Shown here piece after piece: positions 21,864-47,069 of a stretch of 64,000 nucleotides of DNA (position 1 is its first letter; the number at the start of each line of letters is the position of its first letter). The notes below the pieces were generated by a model. That model had not been told where the DNA came from and did no database searches. It saw only the letters and a list, made by a program, of their open reading frames with translations. Location of the stretch: NCBI GenBank assembly GCA_963729625.1, contig CAVSOU010000010.1:1248001-1312000 (forward strand), given 5' to 3'. The position numbers were made by a program, and so were the translations under genes. Origin of the DNA: an uncultured bacterium. Its GTDB lineage: Bacteria > Chloroflexota > UBA5177 > JANWHV01.

Positions 21864-22002
21864 TCGGCGTGGCTCCAGCCTTCCGCTTTCACGTGGCGAA
21901 ACCACTCATTCCAATGCCGAAACCTGCGCTTGAAAGGGCGCCCTCCCCGGGGACGTTGCTCCCCATGCATGGGAGGGCGATGCAAGGTGGCGTGGCGCGC
22001 GC

Positions 22003-23130: not shown

Positions 23131-23135
23131 GTTGA

Positions 23136-24865: not shown

Positions 24866-25223
24866 GGGGAAGTCCTCTCTGAGTCATCTTGGGCCTGGAT
24901 GGGGTGCTTCCCAGCAAACCACGTCGTTGCCTAGCGATCAAGCAACCTCAGCGCTATTAGCTAGCCGACGCTCTAGAGCTCCGGGATGTGGCGATACGGA
25001 TAGCGGAACTAGCGGCAACAGTGCACACATGTAGCCCATACAGCTGGCAGGGCACGGGTGCCTGTACCCGGTCAATCCGCGGTATCTTCACTTGTGGCAT
25101 GAGTTGCGCCGCTACATCCGTCACGCCAATCCGGCGCGACTGCCTGCTGGGCGCCTATTGCCCCAAAGGGCGAGAACGAGGGCGAGGGACGCAACGCCGG
25201 ACGAGCAAGGGAAGGTTGTACCT

Positions 25224-27584: not shown

Positions 27585-27877
27585 GACGCTGCCGTCAGCT
27601 CGCCACGTGCTTCCCGCTCTATTCTGCCTCCTGGCAGCTGCTGTCGACACCTAAAGGGCTGTGCTCACAAGTCCGCAAACGATGCCGGTGCTCACGGGTT
27701 CCGGTATGTGGCCACAAGTACGCAGTGGACGCAGGTCCTGTCCGGCTCACCAAGCACGCGCACACCGCTTCGCCCACGCCTCGCTGGGCCTGTACAATTG
27801 GAATAGCGGCCACCTGGAAACCCCGGGGACAGATGGAGCGTCCCCGTGTCTGGGCTGGTCGAGGAGAGGTCGATCTG

Positions 27878-30343
27878 GTGGAGGAGCGCCCGTTCAGTGC
27901 CATGCTACGGGACCTTCGCCGCGCGGCCGGCCTGTCGCAAGAGGCGCTTGCCGAGCGCGCCGCTCTCTCACCGCAGGCCGTTGGCGCCCTGGAGGCCGGC
28001 CGTCGCCGTATCCCCCGCCGGGAGACGGTCGAGGCACTGGCCGGCGCGTTGGCGCTGGATGAGAAGCGGGCTGGCGCGCTGGCTACGGCGGTCCGGCGTG
28101 CGCCGGTCGCGCGCCTACCAGACGAATCGCACCACGAGCTGCCGCCGGCCACCACGCCGCTGATAGGGCGCGAGAATGAGCTACGACAGCTGGTCACGCG
28201 GCTCGGCCATCCCACTGTACGCCTGCTATCCCTGGTGGGACCAGGCGGCGTGGGCAAGACTTGCCTTGCGCTGCAGGTCGCCATCACCACGTCCGCCTTC
28301 CGCGACGGCGCTGCCTGGGTGGATCTCAGTCCGGTACGCGACGTTGACCTGGTGGCCGCGACGATCGCCGCACGACTGGAGGTTCACGCAGCCGGGCTAA
28401 CACCGCTTCCCGATCTGCTGGCCGCGCACTTGGCGGAGCGGCGGTTGCTTCTGGTGCTGGACAATCTTGAGCAGGTTCTTTTGGCGCGAGGGCTAGTACA
28501 ACAACTCCTCGACGCCTGTCCCGGCTTGAAAGTCCTGGCCACCAGCCGGGTGCCGTTGGGCCTGCCGGGCGAGCACGTCCACGCGGTGGCGCCACTGCCC
28601 GTGCCGGCAGCGGGGCAGCAGGATCCCGAGACGATCGCGGGACACGCGGCGGTGGCCCTCTTTGTGGAGCGCGCGCGCGAGGTGGCGCCGCGGCTGGCGA
28701 TGACTGATACCGATACCGTTGCGGTCGCGGCCATTTGCCGGCGTCTGGACGGCCTGCCGCTGGCGATCGAGCTGGCGGCGGCGCTGGTCAAGGTGCTGCC
28801 GCCCCAGGCTATGCTGGCCCGGCTGATCGCGAGCACGCACACGCAGAGTGGAGCGCTGGATCTGCTGACGGCTGGCGCCTGGGACCGACCCGATCGCCAG
28901 CAAACCATGCGCGATACGATTGACTGGAGCTATGATCTGCTCTCACCTGAGGAGCAAGCGTTGTTCCGCCGCCTTGCCGTGTTCGCGAGCGGCTGCACTC
29001 TTCCGGCTGCCGAGGCGGTGTGTGCCGCGCCCAGGGAGAACCTGGACGTGCTGGAGGGCCTGGCTTCGCTGCTGGACAAGAACCTGCTGGTGCAGCTGGA
29101 GGGTGCGGATACTGCGCCGCGCGTCGGCATGTTGGAGACGATCCGGGACTATGCAGCGGAGAGGCTGGCCCTCAGCGGCGAGCGGCCACGGATTCAGGAA
29201 CGCCATGCCGCCGAGATCCTCGCGATCGTCCTAGAAGCCGAGCCTGAGCTGGGGGGACCACGACAGACCATATGGCTCCAGCGCATTGACGCGGAACTGG
29301 ATAATGTGCGCGCAGTGCTACTCCGGTCTGTCGAGGGCGAGGATACTGCTACCGGACTGCGGCTGTCATCGGCGCTACTGAATTACTGGACGATCCGTGG
29401 TCACTTCGCAGAGGGGCGAAAATGGGTAGATCGGCTGCTAGCTCACCCAGAGACCAACGCAAGCGAGCCCGCCTCTCAGGCCCGCGCGCGCGCACAGCAT
29501 GTCGCGGGGAGGCTCGCCTACCTGCAAGGTGACAACCCGCGGGCACTGGCCATGTTCGAGGAGAGCCTGGCGCTCAGCCGCCTGCTCAAGGACAGCGACG
29601 GCGTGCTGTCTGGGCTCAACGACATCGGAGGCGCCGTGTTCCGCCTGGGCGACTATGCGCGCGCCGCGGCCCTCTATGAGGAGGCGATGGCGATGCGGCG
29701 CGATCGCGGCGAGACGCGACTGGTCGCGCAACTGCTGAATAACCTCGCGACCAGTGCCTTCGCGCAGGGCGAATTCGCGCATGGGATCGAGCTGAGCGAG
29801 GAGAGCCTTGGCCTGCTGCGTGCGCTCGACGATCGATACAGCATTGCCGTGGCGCTGACAAACCTAGGCCAGGCCTCGCTGGAGATGGGCGATGTTCATG
29901 GGGCGGTCAGGGCCTGCGACGAGGGTCTGCCGCTGGCGCGCGAACTCCAGGCGAGCGATGCGATCGCCAGATTCCTCTCGCTCGGCGGCAGCATCTCTCG
30001 CCAGAGCGGAGACTTCGGCCGAGCGCGCCGCCAGCTTGCCGAGGCACTGGCACTGTACCGGGACCTGGGTGCAAGGGACGAGCTGTGGCGGACGCTCGAG
30101 GAGCTCGCCATGGTGGCGCTCGGCGACCGCCAGTTTGAGCGGAGTGCGCTTCTGCTTGCCGCTGCCTCCGCGTGTTATGAGGTTGCCGGCACTGTGCGCT
30201 CACCTGTCGAGCAGGCCACGTACGACCACTGCGCGACCGCCGCGTCGGCGGCTCTGGGCATCCACGTGTTCCAGGCCGCCTGGACGCGGGGACATGCGTT
30301 GTCGCTGGAAGACGCAGTCGCGCTCGGTGGCGAGGCACCCTGA
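27878..30343 (+). CDS. XRE HTH + STAND ATPase + TPR regulator, paralogue 2
   Basis: Same architecture ('GLSQEALAERA', 'GPGGVGKT', 'LVLDNLE', '[11 protein letters not shown]') with more TPRs; GAGGAGAGG RBS before the GTG. Confidence 0.9.
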   Translation: MEERPFSAMLRDLRRAAGLSQEALAERAALSPQAVGALEAGRRRIPRRETVEALAGALALDEKRAGALATAVRRAPVARLPDESHHELPPATTPLIGRENELRQLVTRLGHPTVRLLSLVGPGGVGKTCLALQVAITTSAFRDGAAWVDLSPVRDVDLVAATIAARLEVHAAGLTPLPDLLAAHLAERRLLLVLDNLEQVLLARGLVQQLLDACPGLKVLATSRVPLGLPGEHVHAVAPLPVPAAGQQDPETIAGHAAVALFVERAREVAPRLAMTDTDTVAVAAICRRLDGLPLAIELAAALVKVLPPQAMLARLIASTHTQSGALDLLTAGAWDRPDRQQTMRDTIDWSYDLLSPEEQALFRRLAVFASGCTLPAAEAVCAAPRENLDVLEGLASLLDKNLLVQLEGADTAPRVGMLETIRDYAAERLALSGERPRIQERHAAEILAIVLEAEPELGGPRQTIWLQRIDAELDNVRAVLLRSVEGEDTATGLRLSSALLNYWTIRGHFAEGRKWVDRLLAHPETNASEPASQARARAQHVAGRLAYLQGDNPRALAMFEESLALSRLLKDSDGVLSGLNDIGGAVFRLGDYARAAALYEEAMAMRRDRGETRLVAQLLNNLATSAFAQGEFAHGIELSEESLGLLRALDDRYSIAVALTNLGQASLEMGDVHGAVRACDEGLPLARELQASDAIARFLSLGGSISRQSGDFGRARRQLAEALALYRDLGARDELWRTLEELAMVALGDRQFERSALLLAAASACYEVAGTVRSPVEQATYDHCATAASAALGIHVFQAAWTRGHALSLEDAVALGGEAP

Positions 30344-30552: not shown

Positions 30553-31143
30553 ATGGACGAGTACATCTCGCACACGCATGAGCAGGTAGGACCCCGGCGG
30601 GACACGAGCCGGCGAGGTGGACGGCGTCTGGCAACGCGCGTGCTGGCGAGTGCAGCGCTCCTGGGTGCGATCATTGCCGGCCTGGGAAGCCTGGGTGGCG
30701 GGGCCGGGCGGGCGCCGAGCGTCGCGTACGCCAACGCGCTCGTGCCCACCGTCGGAGGACTCTTGATCCAGCCCGTCCCGGTCGGCGTCGATGCCTTGGG
30801 AACCAACTTTCCACCGGGCGGCTTGGTGCACGTGGACTTGGTTGTTTCCCAATTGCCATCCCCCATCGGGACGCCCGCACCGGGCAACACGCCCATAACG
30901 GTTGGCACCGGGCCGCAGATTATCGCGTCGGTAGACACCACGGCCAGCTTCGCGCGCAACATTCCGATCGGCAACGGCCGCTTCTTCCACGTAAACGGTG
31001 GCACCTTCGACGTTACCCTGACCTCGCCGTCACCCTTTTGCGGAACGAACTCACAAATATCCTACAGCCTGGTTGCAACCTACGTAGCAACTGGCGCTGT
31101 CTACACCAGTCCCTCGATAGAGATGGGACCTGCCTGCAACTAA
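30553..31143 (+). CDS. Hypothetical exported protein with a small beta-rich domain
   Basis: Basic N-region, hydrophobic stretch and 'AYANA' cleavage-like site; beta-strand pattern; two Cys. Confidence 0.7.
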   Translation: MDEYISHTHEQVGPRRDTSRRGGRRLATRVLASAALLGAIIAGLGSLGGGAGRAPSVAYANALVPTVGGLLIQPVPVGVDALGTNFPPGGLVHVDLVVSQLPSPIGTPAPGNTPITVGTGPQIIASVDTTASFARNIPIGNGRFFHVNGGTFDVTLTSPSPFCGTNSQISYSLVATYVATGAVYTSPSIEMGPACN

Positions 31144-31218
31144 CCGTGCCAGAAGAGCGCGGCGGTAGGCACATACCGGTGGCCTCAGGGCGCAATGCTA
31201 AGAACAGGGAGCAATGAC

Positions 31219-32142
31219 ATGGTCGACGATCGCATCACACACCTCGAGCGTAGTGTGGCACAGTTGGAAGGAGCGTTGAGCAGTGCGCACCGCCGCATAG
31301 CTGCGCTCGAGGACGGGCCGGGCCGCACCCGGCGTGCTGCATGGAGCGCACGGGCTTCGTGGCTCATTGGCGGCTTCGCCCTGGCCGCTGTTGCGACGCT
31401 CGGACTGAGCACGGCCTCCGCGACGACCACGCCGCAACCACTCACCGTCAGCCAGCTCCGCGTGGTCGATGGGACCGGCGCGGTGCATGTGCTACTCGAT
31501 GCGCGCGGGCTTCAGGTATATGATCCCCGTGGGCAAAAGGTCGAGGCTGCCATGGTGGCGGAGCCGCGACTCGGCGGGCAAGTCGCTACATATGATTTGA
31601 AAGGGAACAAGTCCTCAACGCTGGGAACGGATCAGAACGGCCTGCCCGCGGTCCAGGTCTGGTCGCCGAAGCAGCTGCAGCCTCAGGCCGGCTTGCTCGT
31701 GAGCGCTGCTGGGTCAGGACGCGTGCAGGCGAGCGGCGAGCTGGAGATTGACGGTCCCCAGGACTCTCTGGCCCGGCTCGGTGCGGATGGCAACAACCTG
31801 TCGCTGCGCTTCTATCAACCGGATGAAGACTCGTATGACGTGCTGGCCAGCATCGGCGAAAGTCCGACAGCCAGCCCCACAAGCGGCGGCCTGGTCACGG
31901 TCAGTCGTGTGAAAGGTATCCCGCAAGTGTTGCTCACAGGGGGCGACCCAGGCGGGACGGTGCAGACATTCGATGCCAGCGGAAACAAGGCGGTGGTCCT
32001 GGCGGGCCCGCCCAGCGGTGGTCAGCTCAGTCTCAGCAATCCCGCCGGGACCGACCGGGTAGTGGCCGGTGTCAACACCAATGACCTGGGATTCGTGCGA
32101 GCCGATGGACCGACAGGCTTCAACATCATCACAGGAAAGTAA
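31219..32142 (+). CDS. Hypothetical coiled-coil + TM/signal + Gly/Asp beta-repeat protein A
   Basis: Heptad 'RITHLERSVAQLEGALSSAHRRIAALE', hydrophobic segment, repeats such as 'LRVVDGTG', 'LQVYDPRG', 'VATYDLKG', 'VQTFDASG', 'LSLSNPAG'. Confidence 0.75.
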   Translation: MVDDRITHLERSVAQLEGALSSAHRRIAALEDGPGRTRRAAWSARASWLIGGFALAAVATLGLSTASATTTPQPLTVSQLRVVDGTGAVHVLLDARGLQVYDPRGQKVEAAMVAEPRLGGQVATYDLKGNKSSTLGTDQNGLPAVQVWSPKQLQPQAGLLVSAAGSGRVQASGELEIDGPQDSLARLGADGNNLSLRFYQPDEDSYDVLASIGESPTASPTSGGLVTVSRVKGIPQVLLTGGDPGGTVQTFDASGNKAVVLAGPPSGGQLSLSNPAGTDRVVAGVNTNDLGFVRADGPTGFNIITGK

Positions 32143-32212
32143 GAGCGGTCCGCTTCACCACCGATCGCCCCCCGTTGAGAGAACGACCAGCACACGGAAG
32201 GAAAGCAAGGAC

Positions 32213-33118
32213 ATGGATGACCATCGGTTCGCGCACCTGGAGACCAGGCTTGCACAAGTGGAAAGGGAGCTTGACGAGGCACGTCACCAGGTGGACGAAC
32301 TGCAACAATCGGAGCAGAGGCTACTGCAGGTTGAGACGGGGCTGGCCGCGTCTGACCGCCTGATTGACGACCTAAAACATGGTACTACCCGCTCTCGCTT
32401 CCTTGGGCGCGTTTCCACCGCCCTGACCGCGTGCGGCCTGACGGCAGTCCTTGCACTTACCGTGGGACCAGCCACGGCGGCACCGGGGCCACAACAGCTA
32501 ACTGTGAAAACTCCGTTTGAAGTCCAGAATACAGCAGGGCGGGTCATCTTCCGCGTGGCCGAGCAAACCGGCGAGGGTTCGGGCGTTGTGACGGTAAGCG
32601 GCAATGACGGCAAAGCACTGGTGGCCCTGCAGCCAAATGAAAGCGGCGGTAGCGGTGAAGTGGTCGTAAGGGGTGTCAAGCCGGGGCAGGTGGCGAGGCT
32701 GAGCAGCTCAGGCGGAGACCTCTCGCTCCGTTTCTACAACGGCGCGAACTTGCTGGCCGGCATCGGCAGTTATGACGGGAGCGGCGTACTCCAGGTGAAC
32801 AGCAAAGCCGGCAAACTGATGGCCAAGATGGGCAACAATGGTACCAGTGGCACCGTTGGCATCTACAATGCCGATGGCAGGACCAAAGGTCTGTTAGGCA
32901 CAGACCCCAAGAGCGGAGACGCCGAGTTCGACCTGTTCTATGCCGACGGTACCACGCCGGCCGTCCAGCTCTCGGAAGTGGCAGTGGGCGGCTATATCGG
33001 GGTGACCAATCGCGCCGGCATTGCGCGAGTCGAGGCCGGTACACTCCCTGACACCGACCAGGGCATTGTCAAGACCTTTGGACCGGGCGGCTTCGACTAC
33101 ATCAGAGGGCGCAAGTAG
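32213..33118 (+). CDS. Hypothetical coiled-coil + TM/signal + beta-repeat protein B (paralogue of A)
   Basis: Longer heptad region, hydrophobic segment, 'Q(P/Q)LTV', repeats 'EVQNTAG', 'VSGNDG', 'QVNSKAG', 'IYNADG'. Shares 'LSLRFY' and the C-terminal 'GP.GF..I.G' with A. Confidence 0.75.
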   Translation: MDDHRFAHLETRLAQVERELDEARHQVDELQQSEQRLLQVETGLAASDRLIDDLKHGTTRSRFLGRVSTALTACGLTAVLALTVGPATAAPGPQQLTVKTPFEVQNTAGRVIFRVAEQTGEGSGVVTVSGNDGKALVALQPNESGGSGEVVVRGVKPGQVARLSSSGGDLSLRFYNGANLLAGIGSYDGSGVLQVNSKAGKLMAKMGNNGTSGTVGIYNADGRTKGLLGTDPKSGDAEFDLFYADGTTPAVQLSEVAVGGYIGVTNRAGIARVEAGTLPDTDQGIVKTFGPGGFDYIRGRK

Positions 33119-33270
33119 CCCGTCTGTCTGGCAATGGAGACACGGTGCTAGTAGACACGTCGATTCCTCCCGCCGGACTCGCGTTCATGACTGTGTAGAG
33201 TCACCGCATAACCCTTACCCCAATGGGGAAACCGAATAGGCCGGCGCGTGCCGGCGAAAGGACAGCTTTG

Positions 33271-36200
33271 ATGCCCAGATTGGCCATCAACCTGGAAGCG
33301 CTGCGCGCGACGGCCACGCGGAACCCGTCCGGCGATCGGCTGTCCTGGTCCGAACAGACGCCGTCGCGGCGGCGGGTCCTGGGCATGGCTGGAGCAGCGG
33401 GTTTGGGCGCGGCGCCGATGGCGCGCCTCGTGCGGGCGCTCTCACTGGGCGACGTTGAACTGGTAGAGGGACCTGGCCGCATCGCCTTTCGGCTGGGGGG
33501 ACTCGATCTCTGGGTGATCGACGTGCGATGGTTTGCCGGATCGCCGTCGCTGCGCGTGATGCACGGACAGAACCAAGTGCACATCACGCTCCGCGGCGCG
33601 CGACTTGCCGGCACGCCGCTGCCGGCGGACCTGACCTGCGATCTGCGCCGCGCACTGGCCGGTTGGCGAATCGCGATCTCGCTGGGGCTGGGAGGATTCA
33701 GCGCCGAGGGAGCGCTGGAGCCGTGGCTGCGCGGCCAGGGGCCACTGCGAGGCGCGGCACGGCTTGACGCAGAGTTTCCCTTGCAAGCTGGAGCCTCGCT
33801 GGCGCTCCACGGCGTGGCCGCCGCCTCGTTCTCGCCCTCCTGGGAGCTGCGCCTTGACGCACAAAACGTCGTGGTACTCCACGATGCGGGCGCCGGCCCA
33901 CTGGCCGCCGACACCGCGATCCTGCAGCCGCTCCCGGCCGAAGCCCCAAGTCTGCTGCGCGACCCTGCCGCCAGACGTACCGCGCTCTCGCTGCGACGGG
34001 GAACCCACCCCTGGACGCTGGCGCCGAACCTTCGCCTTCCCGCGGGCGCCCGCCTGCTGCATGGGCCGGCAACCTTTGACGCGCTCAGCCTGGAGTGTGG
34101 AGAGGCCAGGACCGGAATAGCAAGGTACGCGCTCGCCGTCACCAGCGCGGCCGGCGCCGACCTTGCCTATCAGCCGCACAACGCGTTGACCGGCAGCGAC
34201 GGCGCGCCCTTCACCCTCCCTCTGAGCGCGGCATCGTATGTCCTGGTGCTGGCGCCGTATGGACGGCAAGAAGCCCTGCTGGCACGGCTGCGCGAGGAAC
34301 CAGTGCGATTGGTCTTGGGCGGACACACGCTGGACCTTGTCGACACGGCGGATGCGCCGGCGCTTGAGCTCGCCAGCACAGCGCCGCCACGGCTATCGGC
34401 TGCCGTGGCAAGCGCGCAGCTGTCGCTGCGCGGTGCGCTGGTAGAACCGTTGGCACCGCCGCCACATGCCCGGCTGGCCATCACTGGCCCTGGGCTGGCC
34501 GACACAACGGCCGGCGCCTGGGCAGTGCTGCGGCTGGGTGCCCCTCAGCTTTCAATCAGCAACCCCTCGTTCAACATCGTGCGCCCCGACGATCTGTTGG
34601 TGCTGACATTCGAGTGTCTGGACTTCGTGCTGCAGATCGACGCCAGCGGCGCGGGTGCGTTGGTGCCTGCGAGCGGCGCGGCCAACCCCACGCTGATCGT
34701 ACGCTTCCCGCCGCAGCACATCCAGGAGCAGGCGTTCTTCCGCCGGGTGACCAGCTACCCGGTGCCCAAAGGCGATTCCGATGCGTCGACAGGCCAGGAG
34801 ACGCCTCGGCAGCCGGCTAAGGCCTACCTCGCGGAGGAGAGCAGGCTGGTCTTCGGGCTGGGCCCGGGAATGACGTCGATTCCGTTCACCCTGGAGTCGC
34901 TGCTGGACTGGCAGCAATTCACGCCGCTCCTGACCGGCACCGCCCGGCCGCCGGTCCATGTGCGGCGTCGTGTTTCGATCACGCATGCCGGCAGCAGCAC
35001 GGGCATTTCCCAGACAACGGCCTCGGCGCTGGCGGTCGGCCCGCTGGCGCAGATCCTCAGGCAGCAGCTCCTGCACCCGGCACCCTCGCAGCCCGGGGCA
35101 CGCGAGACGGCAATTGAAGCTCCCTGGCGCCTGATCATGTCGCCGGTGCCGTCCGGCGTCTGGCTGCATTCATTCTCGCCGGTGACCGACCACGGCCGCA
35201 CCGAGCTCTGGCACACCCGCCTGGGGGTCAAGCTCGCCCCGGCGCAGCCCGCGGACCCGCCGTCATTGGTCGATCTACACTATGTCTATCAGCCGCAGGG
35301 TACGGGCCTGGACCGCAAATACGTGGTCACCGGCGAGATCCTCTCGCAGGGCCGGCCGGTCGACGCTTACGGCGCGGATGCGCCGGTGCCCGACCGCGTG
35401 GTACGGGCGGTGTGGTCGCGCGACTACCAGACCGGTAAGGTCGATGCGCCGGCGAACCCGAGTTTCCGTGCATCGCTCAACGCCAACGACCGCTACCAAA
35501 TCGTGCGCCTGAGCGCCGACTTCTCGCACGAGGCATTGAAGCAGCAGCCGTATCAGCCCCCTGCCATCGCCGCGAACCGCCTGATGCTCAGCGGCCTGGG
35601 TGCGTGGCTGGACCTGCGCGGTTCCTTCAGCCCCTCCGCGCTCAGTCTCTCGGTGGAGGAATGGGTGCACCGCGGCGCCATGGGGCGCGATGCCTACGTA
35701 CGGGTGGTCTATCAAGGGTATCTGTTCCCCTTCGGCCATCGCGCCTCGCTGGTCAAGGTGACGGAGCGCAAGTTCTTCGTGGAAAGCGGCAAGAACGTCG
35801 CCTACCTTCTTCAGCGCATGTTCATCGTGGTCCGCGAGCCGATCAAGCAGTTCCGCGTTTCCGGTCAGGTCGACGACCAGCAGAACTCCGTCGATCGCCA
35901 GATGCCGTTCAGCCAGGTGCGCAGCACCACGATCACCACGCCGGATCTGGATATCCCGCAGGGCATCCTCGCCGGCCAGCCCCATGAGAATGCGTTCGTG
36001 CCGCGCGTGGCCGGGAGCGACTTCCTGTTTCACCTCGCCAGCGCCGACGTGACCGGCCAGACCGTTGAGTTCACGGCGCCGATGGCCTTCGTCACTGCCA
36101 ATAACGACCTTGCATTCAATGCGGTCGCCATGGACAGCGTGCGCGCGTACATGCTCGGCGATGTATCAAAGGGACTGCCACCGCGCACGACCTATCAGAC

Positions 36201-37935
36201 GTCCGGGCAGAACGTCGCCTTTGCCGAGAGCGCTGCTTCCGGCGACACGACGCTGCATGCCATGGACGTCACGTTCTCCACCTTCAAGCCGAAGACCTCG
36301 GTGCTGGAGCTCAAGAGGTTTGACCAGCCGGCGTTCTATCCGGTGCTGGCACGGGCGTCGGTGAAGATCCCCGTGCTGGAGGCTCTGCTTCGCACGGGCC
36401 AGGTACCGCAGGTCAAGGTAAGCGGCTTCTATCTCAAGTATGGTTTCGGCGACCCCCGCAACGTAGGGGAGATCTACCTGGAGATGGTCGATGCCAACGC
36501 CAGCCGAGTCTCCTTCTCCGGCTCGGGCTCGGGCCCGGAGGGGAGCCTGGGCGTGATCTCACCCACGTACAACATCGCGGGTATGTCGCGCAAGCAAGGT
36601 CCGGTCGGCAACCCGCTCGACCAGATTGCTGCCGGCTCTTTCAGCGACACGAGCAAGACGTTCTATAACCAGTTCTTCGATCCTTCGCAGGCCAAGATCC
36701 TCGGCGGCCTCAGTCTCGGGGACGTGGCGCACAAGCCGACCAACCCCTCGGACCTACCGATGTTGCTGCAAGGCAATGACCACGAGAATCCGAACGATGT
36801 CGATAGCCCGCTCACGCACAAAACCTACAGTCTCAGCTGGAAGCCGAAGGTGCAAAGCTTCGGACCATACAAGCCCGATACCGGCGATATCGACGCCTCG
36901 AAGAACGGCGCCCTGTCGGTGATTGCCTCCTCCGAACGGGACTACACCGGCAAGCCAGGCAGCTATAAGGTCGAGGGCAAGCTGACCAATTTCGCGCTGG
37001 ACCTGTTCGAGGTGATAGTCACGCACTTCGACGAATTCAGTTTTACCTACGGCGCCGACGGCAAGCTGGGTGTCAAGCCGAAGGGGATCAAGGTTGAATT
37101 CGGTGGACCGCTCTCCTTCGTGAACGACCTGAAGAAAGTCATCCCGGGTGGCGGCGATTCCGGCTCCTCCGGCTCGGCGAGTAGCAGCAGCGCGGCATCC
37201 GGCGGTTCCTCATCGGCACCACCTGCTCCCGCCGCCAGCAGTGGGCCTGACATCGGTGGCCCGTTCGTCGATCCGTCGCTGGATCACGTGGATGCCGGCT
37301 TTCGGATCCACCTGCCGTCTCTCTCGGTTGGCCTCTTTGCCCTCACCAATATCAAGTTCGGGATGGTCTTTACCGTCCCATACTTCGGCGACCCGGTTAC
37401 CGCGGCCATTACCTTTGGCTCTCGCAGCGAGCCGTGCCACCTCGAGATCAGTCTCTTCACCGGCGGGTTGTTCTTCGGCATCACGGTGGGAATGGATGGC
37501 GTGCACAGCCTGGAGGCGGCGATCGAGTTTGGGGCGAGCGCCTCGCTCGACTTCGGGATCGCCAGCGGGACGGTCTATGCCATGGCCGGCATCTATTTCA
37601 AGTTCACGCCGGCCAAGCCGGCAACGGCGACCACGCCGGCCATCCCGGATGTCGCCAGCTTGACGGGTTACTTCCGCGCCGGCGGCGCCGTCGAAGTGCT
37701 GGGGATCGCCTCGGTCTCCATCGAGCTCTACCTCGGCCTGACCTATGAGAACAGGGGCGGCCATGGCGTGGCCTATGGGCAGGCGACGCTTACCCTGGAG
37801 GTCAGCGTCCTCTTCTTCAGCAAGTCCTTCAGCGTCAGCGTGGAACGCGAGATTGCCGGATCGGATCCGCACTTTATCGACCAGATCAGCCACGGCGATT
37901 GGGACGAATACCAGGCGGCGTTCGCCACGGCATGA
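33271..37935 (+). CDS. Very large hypothetical protein (~1554 aa) with a twin-arginine-like signal and an amphipathic beta-strand C-terminus (DUF6603-like pattern)
   Basis: Uninterrupted 4.7-kb ORF with an AAAGGA RBS. 'SRRRVLGMAGAAGLGAA' at ~33364. C-terminal alternating strands 'GASASLDFGIASGTVYAMAGIYF...VSIELYLGLTY...LEVSVLFFSKSFSVSVERE'. Confidence 0.85.
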   Translation: MPRLAINLEALRATATRNPSGDRLSWSEQTPSRRRVLGMAGAAGLGAAPMARLVRALSLGDVELVEGPGRIAFRLGGLDLWVIDVRWFAGSPSLRVMHGQNQVHITLRGARLAGTPLPADLTCDLRRALAGWRIAISLGLGGFSAEGALEPWLRGQGPLRGAARLDAEFPLQAGASLALHGVAAASFSPSWELRLDAQNVVVLHDAGAGPLAADTAILQPLPAEAPSLLRDPAARRTALSLRRGTHPWTLAPNLRLPAGARLLHGPATFDALSLECGEARTGIARYALAVTSAAGADLAYQPHNALTGSDGAPFTLPLSAASYVLVLAPYGRQEALLARLREEPVRLVLGGHTLDLVDTADAPALELASTAPPRLSAAVASAQLSLRGALVEPLAPPPHARLAITGPGLADTTAGAWAVLRLGAPQLSISNPSFNIVRPDDLLVLTFECLDFVLQIDASGAGALVPASGAANPTLIVRFPPQHIQEQAFFRRVTSYPVPKGDSDASTGQETPRQPAKAYLAEESRLVFGLGPGMTSIPFTLESLLDWQQFTPLLTGTARPPVHVRRRVSITHAGSSTGISQTTASALAVGPLAQILRQQLLHPAPSQPGARETAIEAPWRLIMSPVPSGVWLHSFSPVTDHGRTELWHTRLGVKLAPAQPADPPSLVDLHYVYQPQGTGLDRKYVVTGEILSQGRPVDAYGADAPVPDRVVRAVWSRDYQTGKVDAPANPSFRASLNANDRYQIVRLSADFSHEALKQQPYQPPAIAANRLMLSGLGAWLDLRGSFSPSALSLSVEEWVHRGAMGRDAYVRVVYQGYLFPFGHRASLVKVTERKFFVESGKNVAYLLQRMFIVVREPIKQFRVSGQVDDQQNSVDRQMPFSQVRSTTITTPDLDIPQGILAGQPHENAFVPRVAGSDFLFHLASADVTGQTVEFTAPMAFVTANNDLAFNAVAMDSVRAYMLGDVSKGLPPRTTYQTSGQNVAFAESAASGDTTLHAMDVTFSTFKPKTSVLELKRFDQPAFYPVLARASVKIPVLEALLRTGQVPQVKVSGFYLKYGFGDPRNVGEIYLEMVDANASRVSFSGSGSGPEGSLGVISPTYNIAGMSRKQGPVGNPLDQIAAGSFSDTSKTFYNQFFDPSQAKILGGLSLGDVAHKPTNPSDLPMLLQGNDHENPNDVDSPLTHKTYSLSWKPKVQSFGPYKPDTGDIDASKNGALSVIASSERDYTGKPGSYKVEGKLTNFALDLFEVIVTHFDEFSFTYGADGKLGVKPKGIKVEFGGPLSFVNDLKKVIPGGGDSGSSGSASSSSAASGGSSSAPPAPAASSGPDIGGPFVDPSLDHVDAGFRIHLPSLSVGLFALTNIKFGMVFTVPYFGDPVTAAITFGSRSEPCHLEISLFTGGLFFGITVGMDGVHSLEAAIEFGASASLDFGIASGTVYAMAGIYFKFTPAKPATATTPAIPDVASLTGYFRAGGAVEVLGIASVSIELYLGLTYENRGGHGVAYGQATLTLEVSVLFFSKSFSVSVEREIAGSDPHFIDQISHGDWDEYQAAFATA

Positions 37936-37947
37936 AGGAGATTGCAT

Positions 37948-40900
37948 ATGTCTGAGCAGATCATCTGGACCGCGTTGCCCCACGGCATCGCCAATGGCCG
38001 CCTGCGGCTCTCGATACTGATCTCGCCGCGCCTCTCAGGCGCCGGCACGCTGACGCTGAACGATTTCCCGCATTTTCAAGACTGGCCGGCAGTCGTGCGC
38101 GGGCTGAGCTTCACGGCAGCGTTTGACGGCGGGCCGGCGCTCGCCGCGACGCCGCTGTTCCGCGGACCGCATCCATTCAATGCAGCCAGACCGGACTCCT
38201 CCCTCTGGAAAGCGATCTTTCCACACACGACAACCGTGACCTCCTACGCGTTCGACGATTACTCACAACAACTGATTCGCTCCGTGCCGATCGGCAGAAT
38301 CCATGACGACCTCAAGGGACGGTATCTCCAGGTTGCCCATGCTGTCGCGGACGCTCCGCACCTGTTGCCGGATTCAACACAGGTGCTGACGCACTTCGCG
38401 GAGGTCGTGCCGGGGGCGACGCGCCTGCTCGCCTATTCACGCATCCTCAAGCAACAGTCGGCCGTCAGGCAGCTGCTGATCGAGTCCAAACAGGCTGTGG
38501 TCAATCAGATCGACGACACCCTCAAGCAGCAGCGTGCACTGAAGCCCAATCAGCAAGTGGGCGGCATCGCCGGAGACTACCAGCAAATCGAGATCTTTCA
38601 TCAGCCACGCCAAGCAAGGAATCGCGTCGCCAACGCGGCGTCACCATACGTCCGCCAGCCATTGCCAACTGCTGCCGACTACCACGATCAGATCGACTTC
38701 CATCACATCGTGTCCATGCTCGGCAACTATCCGCAGCTGGCCACCCGGCTCGGACTGGTGATCGATCTGGAAGTGCCGCTTGACGCATCAATCCCGCGCA
38801 ACGGTGCAGTCCAGGTGATCAGCTCGACGTTCGGCGCACCTCCCAACGTGCACCCGCGAACACAGTACCTCCTCGACGACGTTCGTTTCGAGCCCCAACC
38901 TAGGCCCAGCGATCCACTCCTGGCGCACGGCATGCTGCAACTGTCCGCGCAGCGGGGTCTCTTCGACGTCGTACAGGTGGACGTGCACGGCGCGGCGGAA
39001 AAGGCGACGGCGATGGTCGCCAATCTGGCCTATTCGCACTCGCGAAAGGCCGGATTCGACGGCATTCCGCCGTTCCGCTCGGCGGGCCTCTCGCTCGTGC
39101 ATTCGGGTCGCGCTGCCGAGTTGGCCACGATCTTCCTCAAGGCAGCCCAGCGTCACCAGGACGCGCAGGCTAACACGCCGGTAGACCTCTACGCCGAGGA
39201 CCTGATCCGCGGCTATGTGATCGATGTGCACGATTCACAGACCGATGCCTGGCATTCGCTCTGCCAGCGGCGCGGCGACTACCACTTTGAGCGTGCGGGC
39301 GAGACGGTCACGTTGGAGGATGAAGGCGCCGTCACGCTTGCCGTCACCAGCGATTCGAGCGGCTCCTCGACCGACCTGTTTCTGCAGGAAACCATGTTTC
39401 AGTGGCAGGGCTGGAGCCTGGTGGCGCCTCGGCCCGGCAAGGCGATCGCCGCCAACGCCGATCCTGCCAACCCCAAGAGCATCACCACCACCGTGACCAA
39501 TACCTCCGCCACGCAGGCAGAGCTGTCCATCTCCTTCAAAGCACTGCCGGGCAGCCTGCCGCGCCTTCGCTTCGGCCTGCGATACGAGGTGCGAGCGCGC
39601 GCCATGGATCTCGCCGGGTACACAACCGACCCATCGTCGTCCGACGCGCGGGCCCCCGGCGCCATATCCGTCGAGCGACCCTACCTGCGTTGGGAGCCGG
39701 TAGTCTCGCCGGCGGTGGTCCTGCGCCATGCGCTCAGCGGCTCTCCGGCGGAAACGGCCAGCAGGCTCGTGATCCGGAGCGATGCAGGCAAGAGCGTCGA
39801 ACACTACTATGCCGAGATGAAGATCGGCAACCGCTATGCTGAGCGCCATATCGTGGCCCCGAGAGCAGGCCAGCTGCTGGCCGAGCAGCACGGCATGTTC
39901 GACGTGCCGCCGCCAGCCGGCAAGAACTGGTTCGAGATCATCGCCTCGCGCGACGTGAGCTTCGAAACGGCGGCCGATGGGATCAATGCGGCGCACTACG
40001 ACTCAGATCAAATCGCCACGCCCTATCTGCCGGACCCACTCGCCTCGGGCGCGGCCTTCCGGGATCTGCCGGGTACCACGCATGACAAACCGATTACCAC
40101 GGCCGATTTCTCCGGCGTTTGGCCCAACCATCGGCCCTTCCGCCTCAAGATCACCGGCGTTGCCGAGCACACGCCGCCAGCGCCACCACACTGGGACGCC
40201 GGCAAGCGCGTGCTGACCGTGCAGTTACCACAGGCGGCGATGCTGGACGTGAGTCTCAGCTGCACGCTCGACCTGCCGGCCCTGGATCTGCTCGGTATCT
40301 GGTCCTGGCTCGGTGAGACCAGGCTGGCCGGGCTCTGGCAGCAAGCAGCACTCGACGGGCAGGTCTGGATGGCCACGCCATTCACCACGCTGACGTTGGT
40401 TCACGCGGTACAACATCCCCTGATCATTCCGGAATTCACCAGCGCTTTCGCCGCTCAAAGGCGGTTGGGCGGCACCTCGGCAGTGCTGGTCGACCCCAAG
40501 ATGCCTATCGACGGCCCAAGCACGGTCAGCATGAACGTGTTCGGCCAGTGGTATGAACCGTTCGATGACCCCGCGCAGCCTGCTCCGCAGGTGCGTGCCG
40601 CACACGGTGCCGTATGCCATCTGTCGCTTCAGCCCGACGACACGACGGCACCGCTCAATCCCGCGGGTAGCGGCGAAAACCCGGCCAAGCTCCTGAATAC
40701 GCATCAGCTCGGCGACACGCGGCATCGCCGGGTGGCCTACACCGCCTCGGCCACCTCGCGCTTCCGCGAATACTTCCCATTCAGCGACGCGCAGATCGCT
40801 GCCGACCCGGCGCTGATCACCGTCACCGGAACGCCGGGCACCCTCCAGGAGCCCGATCCGCAACGTCCTGCCGCGCCACCCAGCGGGGCGCTCTCTGCTG

Positions 40901-41895
40901 GCGTGGTGGAGGTGCCGAGCACGGCACGGCCCGACATCCCGAAGGTGCTCTATGTGGTGCCCACCTTTGGCTGGGATGCCTCCGCCGGAGCTGCGAGCAT
41001 CCAGAGCGTGAGGCGTGGCGGCAGCCTGCGCGTCTACCTGGAGCGGCCCTGGTTCTCCTCGGGCGAGGACGAACTCCTCGGCGTGGTATTCTCCGCCGCG
41101 CGCGGTTTGCGCGGTACGATCCTTCGCGGATCGCAGCCGGACCCAGCCTTCTGCACCGAGTGGGGCCTGGATCCCATCCATCTCTCGGCCGATCTCCCCG
41201 CTGCCTACGCCCCTTCGCTCGGCGCGTTTACCAGTGCCGTGCGCACGCAGACAGGCCTGTCGCTGGATGAAGCCCCGAAGCGCAATGCCAGCGTGGCCGG
41301 CCATCTGGTTGCCTTCGACTCGGACCGACGTCTCTGGTACGCGGACATTACCATCGCGGCCGGGCAAGCCTACTTCCCGTTTGTCCGCCTGGCCCTGGCC
41401 CGCTACCAGCCGTTCTCGGTCGATGGCGCGCATCTCTCCCGCTTGGTGCTGGCCGACTTCATGCAGCTCACGCCGGATCGAACGGCCACCGTGACCTTCG
41501 ACCCAGGGCGGCCGGGCGCACTGCAGATCGCCGTCTCCGGACCGGTTCCTTTCAGCAGCACGAACGTCGTGGTCGCCGGCATCGAGCAGCAAGCTGGGGA
41601 CGCGCCGGATCCGGACCTGGGTTGGGCTACCGCGACAGGTCAAGGAGCAGTCGTCACGCTGCGCCTGCAGCAGGGCGGCCCGATCCGCACAAGGCGGCGC
41701 GGCGCAATCGGCACCTGGAGCGGCTCCCTGCAGGCCCCGACTGCCGGAGGTCGCCTGCGGTTGGTGCTGCGCGAATACGAGAATTATGCAGGGGACGTGC
41801 CGCTTTCGAGCCAGCTGGCGAAGCGCGTCGTCCCGAGCAGTCAGGTCGCCGGCCGGCTGGTCTATGCCGCCGTGATCGATCTGCTCCAGCCGTAG
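37948..41895 (+). CDS. Very large hypothetical protein (~1315 aa), no signal peptide, Ig/Fn3-like segments
   Basis: AAGGAG RBS overlaps the upstream stop. Fn3-like 'RYEVRARAMDLAG'; Pro/Trp-rich beta segments ('VYLERPWFSSGEDELLGVV', 'YFPFVRLALARYQPFS'). Confidence 0.85.
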   Translation: MSEQIIWTALPHGIANGRLRLSILISPRLSGAGTLTLNDFPHFQDWPAVVRGLSFTAAFDGGPALAATPLFRGPHPFNAARPDSSLWKAIFPHTTTVTSYAFDDYSQQLIRSVPIGRIHDDLKGRYLQVAHAVADAPHLLPDSTQVLTHFAEVVPGATRLLAYSRILKQQSAVRQLLIESKQAVVNQIDDTLKQQRALKPNQQVGGIAGDYQQIEIFHQPRQARNRVANAASPYVRQPLPTAADYHDQIDFHHIVSMLGNYPQLATRLGLVIDLEVPLDASIPRNGAVQVISSTFGAPPNVHPRTQYLLDDVRFEPQPRPSDPLLAHGMLQLSAQRGLFDVVQVDVHGAAEKATAMVANLAYSHSRKAGFDGIPPFRSAGLSLVHSGRAAELATIFLKAAQRHQDAQANTPVDLYAEDLIRGYVIDVHDSQTDAWHSLCQRRGDYHFERAGETVTLEDEGAVTLAVTSDSSGSSTDLFLQETMFQWQGWSLVAPRPGKAIAANADPANPKSITTTVTNTSATQAELSISFKALPGSLPRLRFGLRYEVRARAMDLAGYTTDPSSSDARAPGAISVERPYLRWEPVVSPAVVLRHALSGSPAETASRLVIRSDAGKSVEHYYAEMKIGNRYAERHIVAPRAGQLLAEQHGMFDVPPPAGKNWFEIIASRDVSFETAADGINAAHYDSDQIATPYLPDPLASGAAFRDLPGTTHDKPITTADFSGVWPNHRPFRLKITGVAEHTPPAPPHWDAGKRVLTVQLPQAAMLDVSLSCTLDLPALDLLGIWSWLGETRLAGLWQQAALDGQVWMATPFTTLTLVHAVQHPLIIPEFTSAFAAQRRLGGTSAVLVDPKMPIDGPSTVSMNVFGQWYEPFDDPAQPAPQVRAAHGAVCHLSLQPDDTTAPLNPAGSGENPAKLLNTHQLGDTRHRRVAYTASATSRFREYFPFSDAQIAADPALITVTGTPGTLQEPDPQRPAAPPSGALSAGVVEVPSTARPDIPKVLYVVPTFGWDASAGAASIQSVRRGGSLRVYLERPWFSSGEDELLGVVFSAARGLRGTILRGSQPDPAFCTEWGLDPIHLSADLPAAYAPSLGAFTSAVRTQTGLSLDEAPKRNASVAGHLVAFDSDRRLWYADITIAAGQAYFPFVRLALARYQPFSVDGAHLSRLVLADFMQLTPDRTATVTFDPGRPGALQIAVSGPVPFSSTNVVVAGIEQQAGDAPDPDLGWATATGQGAVVTLRLQQGGPIRTRRRGAIGTWSGSLQAPTAGGRLRLVLREYENYAGDVPLSSQLAKRVVPSSQVAGRLVYAAVIDLLQP

Positions 41896-41973
41896 GAGAA
41901 ACCACCATGGTTCACAGGCAGAGAGAGTTTGAGGTCAGCGCCGACGTAAGCCGGCAGTTCAGGGAGGTACGGC

Positions 41974-43086
41974 ATGCGTGGTTATCAGCCACACCCGCCG
42001 AGGGATGGCCGATTCAGCATCGCCGCGGACGGTAAGCCGGCCCGCTCGCGTGCTTTCAGGACAACAGCAGCCGTGTTGCTCGCTGCCTGCCTGGCCATTA
42101 CCATGCTGGCATGGCCCGCCGGCACACGGTCTGCGCGCCAGCAGGATCAAGTGGTTGTCACCATCGACCCCGCGATTGGTTTGGCGGGCAGCACCTTCTC
42201 GATCGGCGCCTCGGGCTATTCCTCGTTCGTGGTTCAGATTCAGGCCACTGCGTTCATCCAGTTCGACATGAACGGGCAGCCGGTTACGATCGGCCAACAG
42301 GCGATTGAGTACTGCCCAAATTCCCCACAGGACATCCAGGTCTACGGATTTGGCGCGCCGTGCGGCCCGGGCGTTTTGGTGACGGTACCGGCCGATGCCG
42401 CGCCCGGCCCTCATACGGTGACGGTGCACGTGCCGAATGCCAACCCCCTCCTGGTGGGCGGCGCCATCGACGTGCAAACTACCTACACCGTGATCGCACC
42501 GGATACGGCCACGCCGACCATCACGGACACCCCCACGCCGACCATCACGGACACCCCCACCGCGACAGTCACGCCTACCGCGACCGGCACACCCACATCG
42601 ACAGTCACGCCCACCGCGACCGGCACACCCACATCGACAGTCACGCCCACCGCGACCGGCACGCCCACATCCACCGCTACAGGCACAGCTACGTCGACGG
42701 CCACGAACACGGCACCCTCAACCGCCACCAGTACTCGCTCGGCCACCAGCACACCAGCGAGGGCCACTGCTTCCGCCACGTCTACGCCGGGCAGGCCAGT
42801 GGCCGTGCTGGTTACGCCCCTCTTCTCGATCGGCAAACTGATCCTGACCGTTCGCGGTCAACCGTTGGCGGCGGTCAACATTTCCCTTGCTATCCAACAC
42901 AGCCAGAAGGGCGTCGTCAGCAAGGTGTATCAGGTGAAGAAGACCGGTACAATGGACTCGAAAGGCGGCTTCTCCACCGTGCTGCCCATCACGTATCGCG
43001 GTCGAGGTCTGGCCGCGCTTATCGTGATCGTCAACGGTCAATCGAAGGGCGTTCGGCTGAGTCGCACGTACCGCTACAGCGGCTGA
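41974..43086 (+). CDS. Exported protein: Ig-like domain + Thr/Pro linker + basic beta domain
   Basis: Hydrophobic signal, 'VTVPADAAPGPHTVTVH', ~95-aa Thr/Pro-rich stretch, Lys/Arg-rich C-terminal domain; GGAGG RBS. Confidence 0.8.
   Translation: MRGYQPHPPRDGRFSIAADGKPARSRAFRTTAAVLLAACLAITMLAWPAGTRSARQQDQVVVTIDPAIGLAGSTFSIGASGYSSFVVQIQATAFIQFDMNGQPVTIGQQAIEYCPNSPQDIQVYGFGAPCGPGVLVTVPADAAPGPHTVTVHVPNANPLLVGGAIDVQTTYTVIAPDTATPTITDTPTPTITDTPTATVTPTATGTPTSTVTPTATGTPTSTVTPTATGTPTSTATGTATSTATNTAPSTATSTRSATSTPARATASATSTPGRPVAVLVTPLFSIGKLILTVRGQPLAAVNISLAIQHSQKGVVSKVYQVKKTGTMDSKGGFSTVLPITYRGRGLAALIVIVNGQSKGVRLSRTYRYSG
42511..42672 (+). repeat. Coding tandem repeats: 2 x 24 bp (TPTITDTP) and 3 x 36 bp (TVTPTATGTPTS)
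   Basis: Visible at 42511-42558 and 42565-42672. Confidence 0.9.
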
Positions 43087-46013: not shown

Positions 46014-47069
46014 CCCGGGGACGTTGCTCCCCATGCATGGGAGGGCGATGCAAGGTGGCGTGGCGCGCGCTCAGCTTGCCGGTGCCGGAGCAGGGGCCGC
46101 TGCTTTGCGTGCGCCGACCTCCTTCTGCAGCAGGAACATCGCGGTCGGGTTGTCCCCAATCATCTTCAGCGCCTCCACGATCTGCGTAGCGTTCTTCTCC
46201 TCCTCCACCTGCTCGCTCACAAACCACTGCAGCAGGATCTGCGCCGGATAATCCTCTTCCCGCAGCGCCAGCGCATAGATCCCGTTGACGGAAGCCGTCA
46301 CCGCCTGTTCATGCTGCAGGGCCTGGCTGAAGGCGTCGAGCGGCGAGGCGAAATCGCGCCCGGGCTGGTCCAGTGCCAGCAGCTCGGGGCGGCTGCCGCG
46401 GTCGAGCAGGAAGTCGAAGATGCGCATGGCGTGACCCACTTCCTCCTGACTCTGCAGCCGCAGCCACCGCGCAAAACCCGCCAGACCGGTCGACTCGCAG
46501 TACCCCGAGGCCGATAGGTAGAAATAGGCTGACGCCAGCTCCGTGCTGATCTGCCGGTTGAGTGCGGTCCTGACGGCTTCCTTCATGACACGCTTCCCCT
46601 CTCAATTGAGCGGACTACCGAATCTTGTGGACGCGAGATGAGCGGAAGACTAGCCCGCGACCTGCCCTCCCGACCCTATCAGCCCGCTGCTCGCGCCTGC
46701 TTTATGGTAGAACGTCTGCGACGTGCACGCCAGGGGCACGCTGCGCCAAGGCCAGGGCACGCCGGAGATCGCGTACGGCATCCGGCAACTTGCCCACGTC
46801 CGCGAGCGCTTGTCCGCGTGTCTGCTAACCCGCCGGCTGGTATTTGAGCCGACCCCGTCGACGACTTTGGCCCACCGATTCAGTCGCACGCCCGATTGCG
46901 TCGCCCCATCGGCCGCGGGCAAGAGCAATCTCGGCGCGCACCTGAGTGAGGCGGATCTGCCATAACCAACCGTGCCATCGTGCGGTGGCGCCGCCACCCG
47001 GGTAGTGGTGGGCATGGCTACGCGGGGACTGCGAGCCGTCACACTTACCGCTTGCTCGGCCAGGTTGAT
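46014..47069. repeat. Long direct repeat, copy 2
   Basis: Matches 21946-23136 with scattered substitutions and a 135-bp internal deletion. Confidence 0.95.
46071..46586 (-). CDS. ftnA: Non-heme ferritin, copy 2
   Basis: Identical to copy 1 except three substitutions (M>T, V>A, S>A). Confidence 0.93.
   Translation of the reverse strand: MKEAVRTALNRQISTELASAYFYLSASGYCESTGLAGFARWLRLQSQEEVGHAMRIFDFLLDRGSRPELLALDQPGRDFASPLDAFSQALQHEQAVTASVNGIYALALREEDYPAQILLQWFVSEQVEEEKNATQIVEALKMIGDNPTAMFLLQKEVGARKAAAPAPAPAS

Follow-up and report, generated by a model that had tools for sequence, protein, structure and literature searches.

A widespread pair of giant beta-rich proteins, encoded in a Chloroflexota genome, as a candidate twin-arginine-exported module

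Among described systems, those closest in layout to the locus analysed here are the type Va autotransporters, which are built in the order signal, large beta-rich passenger, flexible linker and C-terminal meander of ~12-14 strands; the type Vb (TpsB/TpsA) systems, in which two large genes lie side by side, one with a barrel-like domain and the other encoding a long beta-rich protein; and the 'hitchhiker' heterodimers of the twin-arginine (Tat) pathway, in which one of two adjacent, co-conserved products has the twin-arginine signal. Barrel-type membrane sheets belong to outer membranes and depend on the barrel-assembly machine (BAM). Tat cargos are of small to medium size and are for the most part cofactor-bearing enzymes, and the known hitchhiker pairs, e.g., the small and large subunits of hydrogenases and DmsAB, are cofactor-bearing redox enzymes far below 300 kDa. 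In one report, export of heterodimers with a signal on one partner only is described for the Tat pathway (10.1101/2023.11.02.564894). Here we analyse a 64,000-nucleotide stretch (the window) of contig CAVSOU010000010.1 from an uncultured Chloroflexota bacterium (assembly GCA_963729625.1), in which six co-oriented open reading frames (ORFs) on the + strand, A to F, span positions 30553-43086 (Table 1), and in particular its two giant genes, D and E.

An earlier note, made from the letters of the DNA, had put the six genes forward as a single unit encoding a multi-subunit surface or secreted complex. That unit did not survive a comparison of homologous loci: D and E very probably form the functional unit, which has two genes rather than six, and for this window the two genes, not the six, are the proper unit of study.

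The conserved unit: genes D and E

An alignment of D was scanned against one genome per species (185,579 species), which gave at least 553 confirmed stretches, and the best 80 loci were kept. At 72 of these 80 loci D is immediately followed, on its own strand, by an E-like sequence, which bears out the coupling of the two giants proposed in the earlier note, and at seven of the eight loci lacking E the contig ends at D. Counting against an invariable pairing is locus L065 (14887-17389), where the 2.5 kb past D hold an unrelated 572-aa ORF and no E-like gene. The metagenome-assembled genome (MAG) to which L065 belongs also holds a complete D-E pair elsewhere (L085). In the window the two genes are tightly spaced, the TGA stop of D abutting an AGGAG ahead of the ATG of E with 12 nt between the D stop and the E start.

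De novo clustering of ~1,000 ORFs from the flanks returned just two widely common clusters, D (76 loci) and E (66 loci); the remaining clusters occur at 11 loci or fewer each and follow lineage. Together with Pfam searches of 54 same-strand immediate neighbours, this clustering identified no recurrent third gene beyond lineage synteny, and in none of the 80 related loci was A, B, C or F detected next to D-E. From the frequency of the pairing, the lack of a widely common third cluster and the absence of the four small genes, we therefore regard D-E as the conserved unit; the mapping of homologue neighbourhoods that the earlier note had recommended upholds the linkage of D with E and does not uphold that of A, B, C or F. 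The pairs come from Chloroflexota, Bacillota, Acidobacteriota, Aminicenantota, Armatimonadota, Bacteroidota, Chlorobiota, Pseudomonadota and other phyla. The host genome itself carries three, one in the window and one each on contigs C8 and C4, the C8 pair being neighboured by RCC1-repeat and BNR proteins and the C4 pair by a BTAD regulator and a trypsin-like peptidase. In four annotated records (one plasmid each of Bacillus bombysepticus, B. tropicus, a Streptomyces and a Diaphorobacter) the pair appears as two bare 'hypothetical protein' genes among unrelated genes.

On these results it is very unlikely that A to F together encode one multi-subunit surface or secreted machine in which A, B, C and F are integral parts. 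The co-orientation, short gaps and ribosome-binding-site (RBS)-like stretches of the six genes would suit such a machine, as would the N-terminal hydrophobic segments in five of the six products, the position of F after E in one same-genus genome too, and the lack of any terminator-like signal above chance within the cluster (6 sites against 7.6 expected by chance); however, the four small genes are missing from every related D-E locus, the clustering yields no widely common third gene, the two other D-E pairs of the host have other neighbours, paralogues of B and C lie elsewhere in the genome, and B has only two detectable homologues.

Several individual loci vary around the pair. In Kapaibacteria/Chlorobiota-type loci (L050, L054, L063, L067 and L071) D-E has a co-oriented ORF on either side, the upstream one of ~365 aa in four of the five (658 aa in L054) and the downstream one of ~650-710 aa, all of them without a Pfam match; the module may have a four-gene form specific to this lineage. 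At L080 and L047, too, an ORF of 713-717 aa follows on the same strand, but with matches to RCC1 and DUF6785/DUF6784. Genes for RCC1-repeat beta-propellers adjoin D-E in two unrelated lineages, at L089:12462-15911 (G000:C8:135461-138910, in the host genome) and at L080:18930-21080 in a Kapaibacterium MAG. A relative of the same class (G009:C207:16448-33198) has two E-like genes in opposite orientation, ~8 kb apart, which suggests local duplication of the D-E module. Finally, the E gene of the host's C8 pair (G000:C8:125878-129958, minus strand; L089) changes frame near C8:126429, residues 1124-1317 being read in a different one, through either a frameshift or an error of assembly.

The family to which D belongs is large and unannotated. 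A word-based search identified at least 330 D homologues at E <= 0.001, all of them unnamed or labelled 'hypothetical protein' apart from one 'putative outer membrane channel', and a profile of the D core, read against 1.84 billion cluster representatives (clusters at 50% identity), matched 6,311, 5,149 and 3,440 clusters at E <= 1e-3, 1e-10 and 1e-30, respectively. Pfam searches with 28 D homologues returned nothing save a low-complexity match to Baculo_PEP_C in a few, and searches with a further 26 family members (21 E and 5 D) returned no usable match. An ESM Atlas search with the homologue P0028 gave no usable named look-alike: 28 of its 30 hits belong to the set that has no common Pfam family, and the three listed (0.96-0.97) were unnamed 'hypothetical protein' clusters. 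Titles and the opening parts of abstracts in the literature yielded no description of the D-E family.

The D-E module is carried by chromosomes and by large plasmids, with 22 records of plasmids or chromids containing members of the D family (7 from Bacillus, 4 from Rhizobium, 3 from Streptomyces, 2 from Cupriavidus and the rest from other bacteria), and no match to the family was identified in 50,697 phage records. Among 31 genomes (the host and 30 relatives) E is present in ten, including the host and all four others of its genus. A FastTree phylogeny of 75 D cores has the phyla clustered yet interleaved, the labels changing 28 times, compared with a minimum of 10 and with 43.9 when labels are shuffled; the tree would fit vertical descent with paralogy and some transfer, the MAG labels being noisy. 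When compared with the orthologous pair at L009 (83-84% identical), D and E have ratios of nonsynonymous to synonymous substitution (dN/dS) of 0.18 and 0.17, respectively. The pair is kept under purifying selection, so that the selection which the earlier note had read from the intactness of the genes holds for D and E.

A search for D-E fusions among proteins of 2,749-5,000 aa turned up two distant D-like giants, P0255 (3,084 aa) and P0256 (3,046 aa). P0255 keeps the order of D's conserved blocks, with a helical insert ahead of the C-terminal beta domain, and in these D-like proteins the C-terminal block is retained after an insert of ~1,150 residues. As a D-E fusion P0255 was ruled out, having no similarity to E.

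Predicted architecture of D and E

Long-form D proteins start with a conserved LNLxALR motif and have, ~30-45 residues in, the sequence S/T-R-R-x-x-L-G-L-A-G followed by a short uncharged stretch. The domain that comes next in the window protein is optional, being missing from short-form homologues of about 1,000-1,270 aa. An AlphaFold2 model of residues 440-1570, built with 54 sequences, is almost all beta (predicted local distance difference test (pLDDT) 79.1, predicted template-modelling score (pTM) 0.67), with pLDDT mostly 85-97 in the core and block means of 90-97 over much of it. The core has many invariant Arg, Asp, Glu, His and Trp positions, e.g., in ELWHTRL and GYLFPFGHRA, and it is followed by a low-complexity linker and then by a C-terminal amphipathic meander with strands of up to 19 residues and a closing short conserved helix that ends in AFA.

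E begins with a conserved beta-hairpin, MxxQxIxWTALPNG, and no N-terminal hydrophobic segment was seen in the window E or in the alignment consensus. Its model (residues 3-1202; pLDDT 85.0, pTM 0.72) consists of beta-sandwiches strung in a chain and interrupted by helical inserts at residues ~115-270 and ~346-407. Foldseek searches of the PDB with this model identified generic FN3/Ig strings and A2M/TEP/C3 proteins at template-modelling (TM) scores of 0.32 or less, and VIA-align, run with residues 3-1202 in two passes, found no chain at Z 8, the best being a generic FN3 match at Z 7.4. A comparison of the D and E profiles revealed no relationship (probability 0.1).

The long conserved blocks with invariant Arg, Asp, Glu, His and Trp in both D and E are enzyme-like, and the pair could be an exported two-subunit enzyme or binding complex that acts on a polymer of the envelope or environment (glycan, wall or matrix), its C-terminal sheet being soluble or wall-facing. 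Tat export, which is typical of proteins that fold before export, would fit such a role, and so would the often secreted neighbours (RCC1, BNR, beta-helix, SLH/invasin and peptidase M23 proteins); however, Pfam searches with 28 D and 21 E members found no catalytic family or motif, the neighbours share no recurrent substrate theme, and no enzyme fold came out of the fold searches, which barely cover the D core. We consider this explanation unlikely, if still worth carrying.

Exhaustive VIA-align searches with the D model identified 83 of 48,161 chains at Z >= 8. The D core (residues 440-1310) is barely covered by the fold searches; the barrel matches align with the C-terminal part of the protein. 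The best 50 of the 83 matches are membrane beta-barrels apart from lipovitellin, 49 of them coming from bacterial outer membranes, and the barrel alignments cover model residues 871-1112 with Z scores of 10-13 over 165-209 aligned residues. These matches included CymA (Z 12.7, 188 aa, root-mean-square deviation (rmsd) 6.2), FhuA (Z 10.9, 194 aa, rmsd 4.0), FhaC (Z 11.0, 177 aa, rmsd 4.0), and BamA and TamA (both Z 10.6); a second pass, topped by CymA and OmpG at Z 12-13, gave the same picture. The sheet superposes better on the walls of 16-26-strand barrels (rmsd about 4) than on 12-strand barrels (rmsd 7-9), which suggests that it is gently curved and perhaps open. Averaged over the 54 sequences, the strands at 1355-1544 have period-2 hydropathy, with values of +2 to +3.4 on one face versus -0.1 to -2.1 on the other. 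Foldseek searches with D gave only low-probability giant beta proteins plus barrels in the PDB, and no credible match in BFVD.

A sheet of this kind might also be a surface for binding or transferring lipid, as in large lipid-transfer proteins and AsmA/TamB-type grooves, in which case D-E would have the task of moving or holding lipids on the outer side of the cytoplasmic membrane. The strongly hydrophobic face extends over ~200 residues, lipovitellin aligns with the sheet (Z 8.9, 138 aa), and the better fit to large barrels would allow for an open sheet; on the other hand barrel walls, at Z 10-13, outscore lipovitellin, Pfam searches revealed neither AsmA or TamB nor any other family of lipid-transfer proteins, and there are no lipid-metabolism genes among the neighbours. 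Taken together these points leave lipid transfer improbable, somewhat more so than the enzyme or binding complex.

The resemblance of D to the type Va autotransporters goes beyond the order of parts, as their barrels are among its fold matches (AIDA-I Z 11.1, BrkA Z 10.7, EspP Z 10.5-11.6; for autotransporter barrels as a whole Z 9.7-11.6, with rmsd 7-9 over 176-195 aa). Unlike them, D has a signal of Tat type rather than Sec type, neither D (Pfam and NCBIfam, E <= 1) nor any of 28 D homologues matches an autotransporter family, the sheet superposes poorly on 12-strand barrels, the host (an 87% complete genome) has no BamA that we could find, the D family also occurs in Bacillus and Streptomyces, and type Va systems have no counterpart of the obligate 1,300-aa partner encoded by E. 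The type Vb barrels FhaC and CdiB likewise align with the sheet (Z 10.9-11.0), but D and E have no Omp85, POTRA or TPS domains in Pfam or NCBIfam, the barrel-like part forms the C-terminus of a protein 1,100-1,800 aa long, and the partner E is without a signal peptide.

Rhs, Tc and teneurin proteins, as well as A2M-like proteins, are large and mostly beta, like D and E, and they head the Foldseek lists (teneurin, Rhs and TcdB2-TccC3 for D; A2M, TEP1 and C3 for E). These matches are poor, with probabilities of 0.04-0.16 and TM scores of at most 0.16 for D, and probabilities of 0.23-0.75 and TM scores of at most 0.16 for the A2M-type matches of E, and none of these protein types is found among the best 50 VIA-align rows for either protein (the lowest of these rows having Z 8.8 with D and 5.2 with E). 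Pfam searches found no RHS/YD, SpvB, TcdB or VRP1 match in the six window proteins, 28 D homologues and 26 further family members, and no A2M, MG or thioester match for E or 21 members of its family. Sheath, tube, baseplate and VgrG/PAAR parts of type VI secretion systems (T6SS) and extracellular contractile injection systems (eCIS) had no Pfam or PHROG match in A to F. Pore-forming toxins (aerolysin, leukocidin, MACPF/CDC and binary-toxin B) had no Pfam match either, and none is among the fold matches listed, which are filled by outer-membrane barrels and barely cover the D core. No match in PADLOC-DB (2023) was found for A, B, D or E. Hits of that database to C and F (E 0.04-0.09) fell on low-complexity or coiled-coil parts and were rejected as not credible. 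PDB sequence searches with D, with E and with the D profile were without a match. The earlier note's view that the locus is unlike T6SS, eCIS, toxin complex (Tc) and contact-dependent inhibition (CDI) loci thus agrees with the library and fold searches, which revealed no resembling parts, and the full-length match to a characterised system that it had named as a refutation was looked for and not found. As far as sequence and model comparisons go, the D-E module matches no known kind of system among those compared.

Candidate export and membrane engagement

A canonical S/T-R-R-x-F/L-L motif with a hydrophobic stretch is kept across phyla in D, and Aminicenantes-type short forms also have an RR motif (SRRKFLSYAG...). 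When scored with a pattern heuristic rather than a trained predictor, the Tat motif is positive in the window D, in 51 of 71 D genes at the loci (a count that leaves out three ORFs touching a contig start) and in 59 of 119 database homologues; among E proteins it is positive in 0 of 58. The host genome encodes TatC (PF00902 at G000:C14:168247-168879, 186 bits, above the cut-off), whereas Omp85/BamA (PF01103) was not found in it at 87% completeness; as a control, PF01103 was positive in seven of 14 reference genomes, all of them diderm bacteria. Based on the motif, D is probably exported by the Tat pathway. The Tat motif and TatC make an extracytoplasmic role plausible, which is the part of the earlier surface-or-secreted-complex proposal that stands, its six-gene membership having fallen away.

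A different explanation is that D-E works inside the cell, e.g., in defence against phages or in some other conflict, the RR motif not serving for export. Its patchy presence among the 31 genomes, its large plasmids and its several copies per genome are what such a system might show; the signal is missing in some lineages, HNH, helicase and HD neighbours occur on a Bacillus plasmid, and one TIR, one integrase and one DUF4276 gene are found among the 54 adjacent genes. However, these last three are the only conflict-related genes of the 54, no PADLOC match and no nuclease, ATPase or other effector domain was identified, the family is missing from the phage records, and the RR motif with its hydrophobic stretch is maintained from phylum to phylum. 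An intracellular conflict role is in our view most improbable.

Under the preferred explanation, that of export, D would be made with its twin-arginine signal, fold in the cytoplasm and pass in folded form through the Tat pathway, E binding to it first and crossing as a signal-less 'hitchhiker'. Outside the cytoplasm the D core and E would form an exposed beta-rich body, and the barrel-wall-shaped C-terminal sheet of D would insert into or bind a lipid membrane, either that of the cell's own envelope or that of another cell, in the latter case as a pore-forming antagonist. FN3-like domains are common in extracytoplasmic proteins, and as E has such domains, lacks a signal of its own and is translated right after D, riding with D would be its most likely route; such co-export would explain why the family uses Tat rather than Sec. 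We nevertheless put co-export of E forward tentatively. Likewise, that the C-terminal sheet engages membrane or lipid is a possibility we favour with some hesitation. In a host without BamA, such insertion would do without a barrel-assembly machine. For the whole chain, in which D is exported folded, perhaps carrying E, and its sheet engages membrane or lipid, our assent is equally guarded.

The Tat hitchhiker heterodimers resemble D-E in having the signal on one of two adjacent, co-conserved products; they differ in that no cofactor motifs or redox domains were identified in D or E, and the binding of D to E is putative.

Several results weigh against this explanation. The heuristic fails at 20 of the 71 D loci, though some of these show an RR motif by eye, and no signal was found in the D forms of Bacillus, Bradyrhizobium, Rhizobiales, Geobacter and Actinomycetota. 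With D at about 165 kDa and D plus E at about 310 kDa, the cargo would be larger than any Tat substrate known to us. As the host genome is 87% complete, its BamA is to be read as 'not found' rather than absent. The period-2 amphipathicity of the modelled sheet would also fit packing onto a protein core or the lining of a lipid pocket, and so leaves insertion unproven; lipovitellin, too, is among the matches of the sheet. A complex prediction made with parts of the two proteins only (D 1150-1570 and E 3-502) scored 0.18 (mark 0.32) and counts neither for nor against their binding.

The most far-reaching version of the proposal is that D-E is a new system of export and membrane insertion, in which a ~300-kDa Tat cargo would place a ready-made barrel or sheet without BAM, even in single-membrane bacteria, and serve as a pore, translocon or killing device; we consider this unlikely. 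If it were true, D-E would break the expectations both of Tat cargo size and of BAM dependence, and thousands of bacterial lineages (from soil, sediment and digesters, and on large plasmids) would share an unnamed two-protein apparatus. Even with another mechanism the family is worth defining, on account of its 6,311 clusters and strict gene pair, and a recurrent 'hypothetical protein' pair (1,100-1,800 aa plus about 1,300 aa) would become a named target for structural and genetic work. The interest of the module is in the size of its unannotated family, in the way a Tat signal, a giant cargo and a barrel-type sheet come together where no BAM was found, and in the existence of cultivable carriers, among them Cupriavidus metallidurans CH34, Geobacter hydrogenophilus DSM 13691, Phyllobacterium pellucidum and a Streptomyces with a plasmid copy.

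Small neighbours and genomic setting

The start codons and product lengths of A to F (Table 1) were chosen by a purine-rich, RBS-like stretch 6-17 nt upstream. The intergenic gaps from A to F are about 75, 70, 152, 12 and 78 nt, and in all six frames the G+C content at third codon positions (0.70-0.81) exceeds that at second positions (0.48-0.61), as expected for a genome of 64% G+C, so that A to F are to be considered real genes. These data confirm the earlier description of six intact, co-oriented ORFs with short gaps and RBSs. When the translations are read by eye, an Arg-rich stretch followed by an N-terminal hydrophobic segment is seen in every product except E, in agreement with the export or anchor segments that had been ascribed to five of the six. 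The products were also rightly called unassignable: in Pfam, NCBIfam, PHROGs and PADLOC searches none of A to F reached a curated cut-off or a convincing E-value.

Table 1. Features of the window, with the D-E module first; residue numbers of D refer to the 1570-aa ORF
Feature	Positions	Strand	Description or basis
Gene D	33271-37935	+	1554 aa; longest ORF from 33223 (1570 aa); core member of two-gene module
D, Tat-type signal region SRRRVLGMAGAAGLGAAP	33361-33447	+	Residues about 47-75; motif heuristic
D, optional N-terminal domain	33448-34539	+	Residues about 76-439; short forms align only from ~440
D, conserved beta-rich core	34540-37143	+	Residues 440-1307; alignments, AlphaFold2 model
D, Gly/Ser/Ala/Pro low-complexity linker	37144-37251	+	Residues about 1308-1343; pLDDT <50 at model residues 869-904
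D, C-terminal amphipathic beta-meander	37237-37860	+	Residues about 1339-1546; Gly-rich, ~12-14 long strands
Gene E	37948-41895	+	1315 aa; FN3/Ig-like beta-sandwiches with helical inserts; downstream partner of D
Gene A	30553-31143	+	196 aa; N-terminal hydrophobic segment; lineage-specific neighbour
Gene B	31219-32142	+	307 aa; coiled-coil N-terminus, one hydrophobic segment, beta-rich C-terminal part; lineage-specific
Gene C	32213-33118	+	301 aa; paralogue of B; lineage-specific neighbour
Gene F	41974-43086	+	370 aa; N-terminal hydrophobic segment, beta domain, Thr-Pro-rich repeat linker, C-terminal domain
Two tandem HTH-NB-ARC-TPR (STAND-type) regulator genes	25092-27584, 27725-30343	+	Pfam HTH_3/HTH_31, NB-ARC, TPR; context only
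IS66-type DDE ORF	23680-24600		Within the 24-kb segment
DDE transposase gene	43913-45265		Within the 24-kb segment
300-nt perfect direct repeat	21946-22245 and 46014-46313		Brackets the 24-kb segment 21946-46313

A, B, C and F appear, as judged from their sequences, to be lineage-specific, membrane-anchored or secreted neighbours of the D-E module. Gene A had one weak match in five relatives (40% identity, residues 67-189), and a word-based search of 5.8 billion proteins detected just the two homologues of B; in relatives close enough to test the upstream genes the contigs are too short to reach A to C. B and C share 27% identity (tblastn E 2e-9) and are paralogues, as the earlier note had recognised, and further paralogues lie in the host genome at C8:79454-80239 and C11:800419-801378, away from any D-E pair. 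The Thr-Pro-rich linker of F (42498-42719) comprises about nine imperfect copies of a repeat with an 18-nt period. One genome of the same genus (G002:C507) has an F orthologue of 69% identity 82 nt beyond the end of E, a linkage that may be plain synteny. An 88%-identical copy of F residues 122-188 is found on contig C13 (10787-10987).

The repeat-bounded setting, rich in insertion sequences (IS) and lying behind two STAND (signal transduction ATPases with numerous domains) genes, was found as the earlier note had described it. The two STAND genes are paralogues, as their internal repeats are 72-77% identical, and no such regulator genes were identified among the neighbours scanned at other D-E loci. 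The 24-kb segment between the copies of the 300-nt repeat has inside it the STAND genes, the six ORFs and the DDE transposase gene, and the direct repeats around it suggest a composite mobile or duplicated segment. A 70-nt direct repeat (94% identity, 23067-23136 and 47000-47069) also brackets a 24-kb segment here. Upstream of these features, each of three adjacent ORFs, at 17432-18421 (+), 18480-19310 (-) and 19381-20436 (-), encodes a YbjQ_1 (putative heavy-metal-binding) domain.

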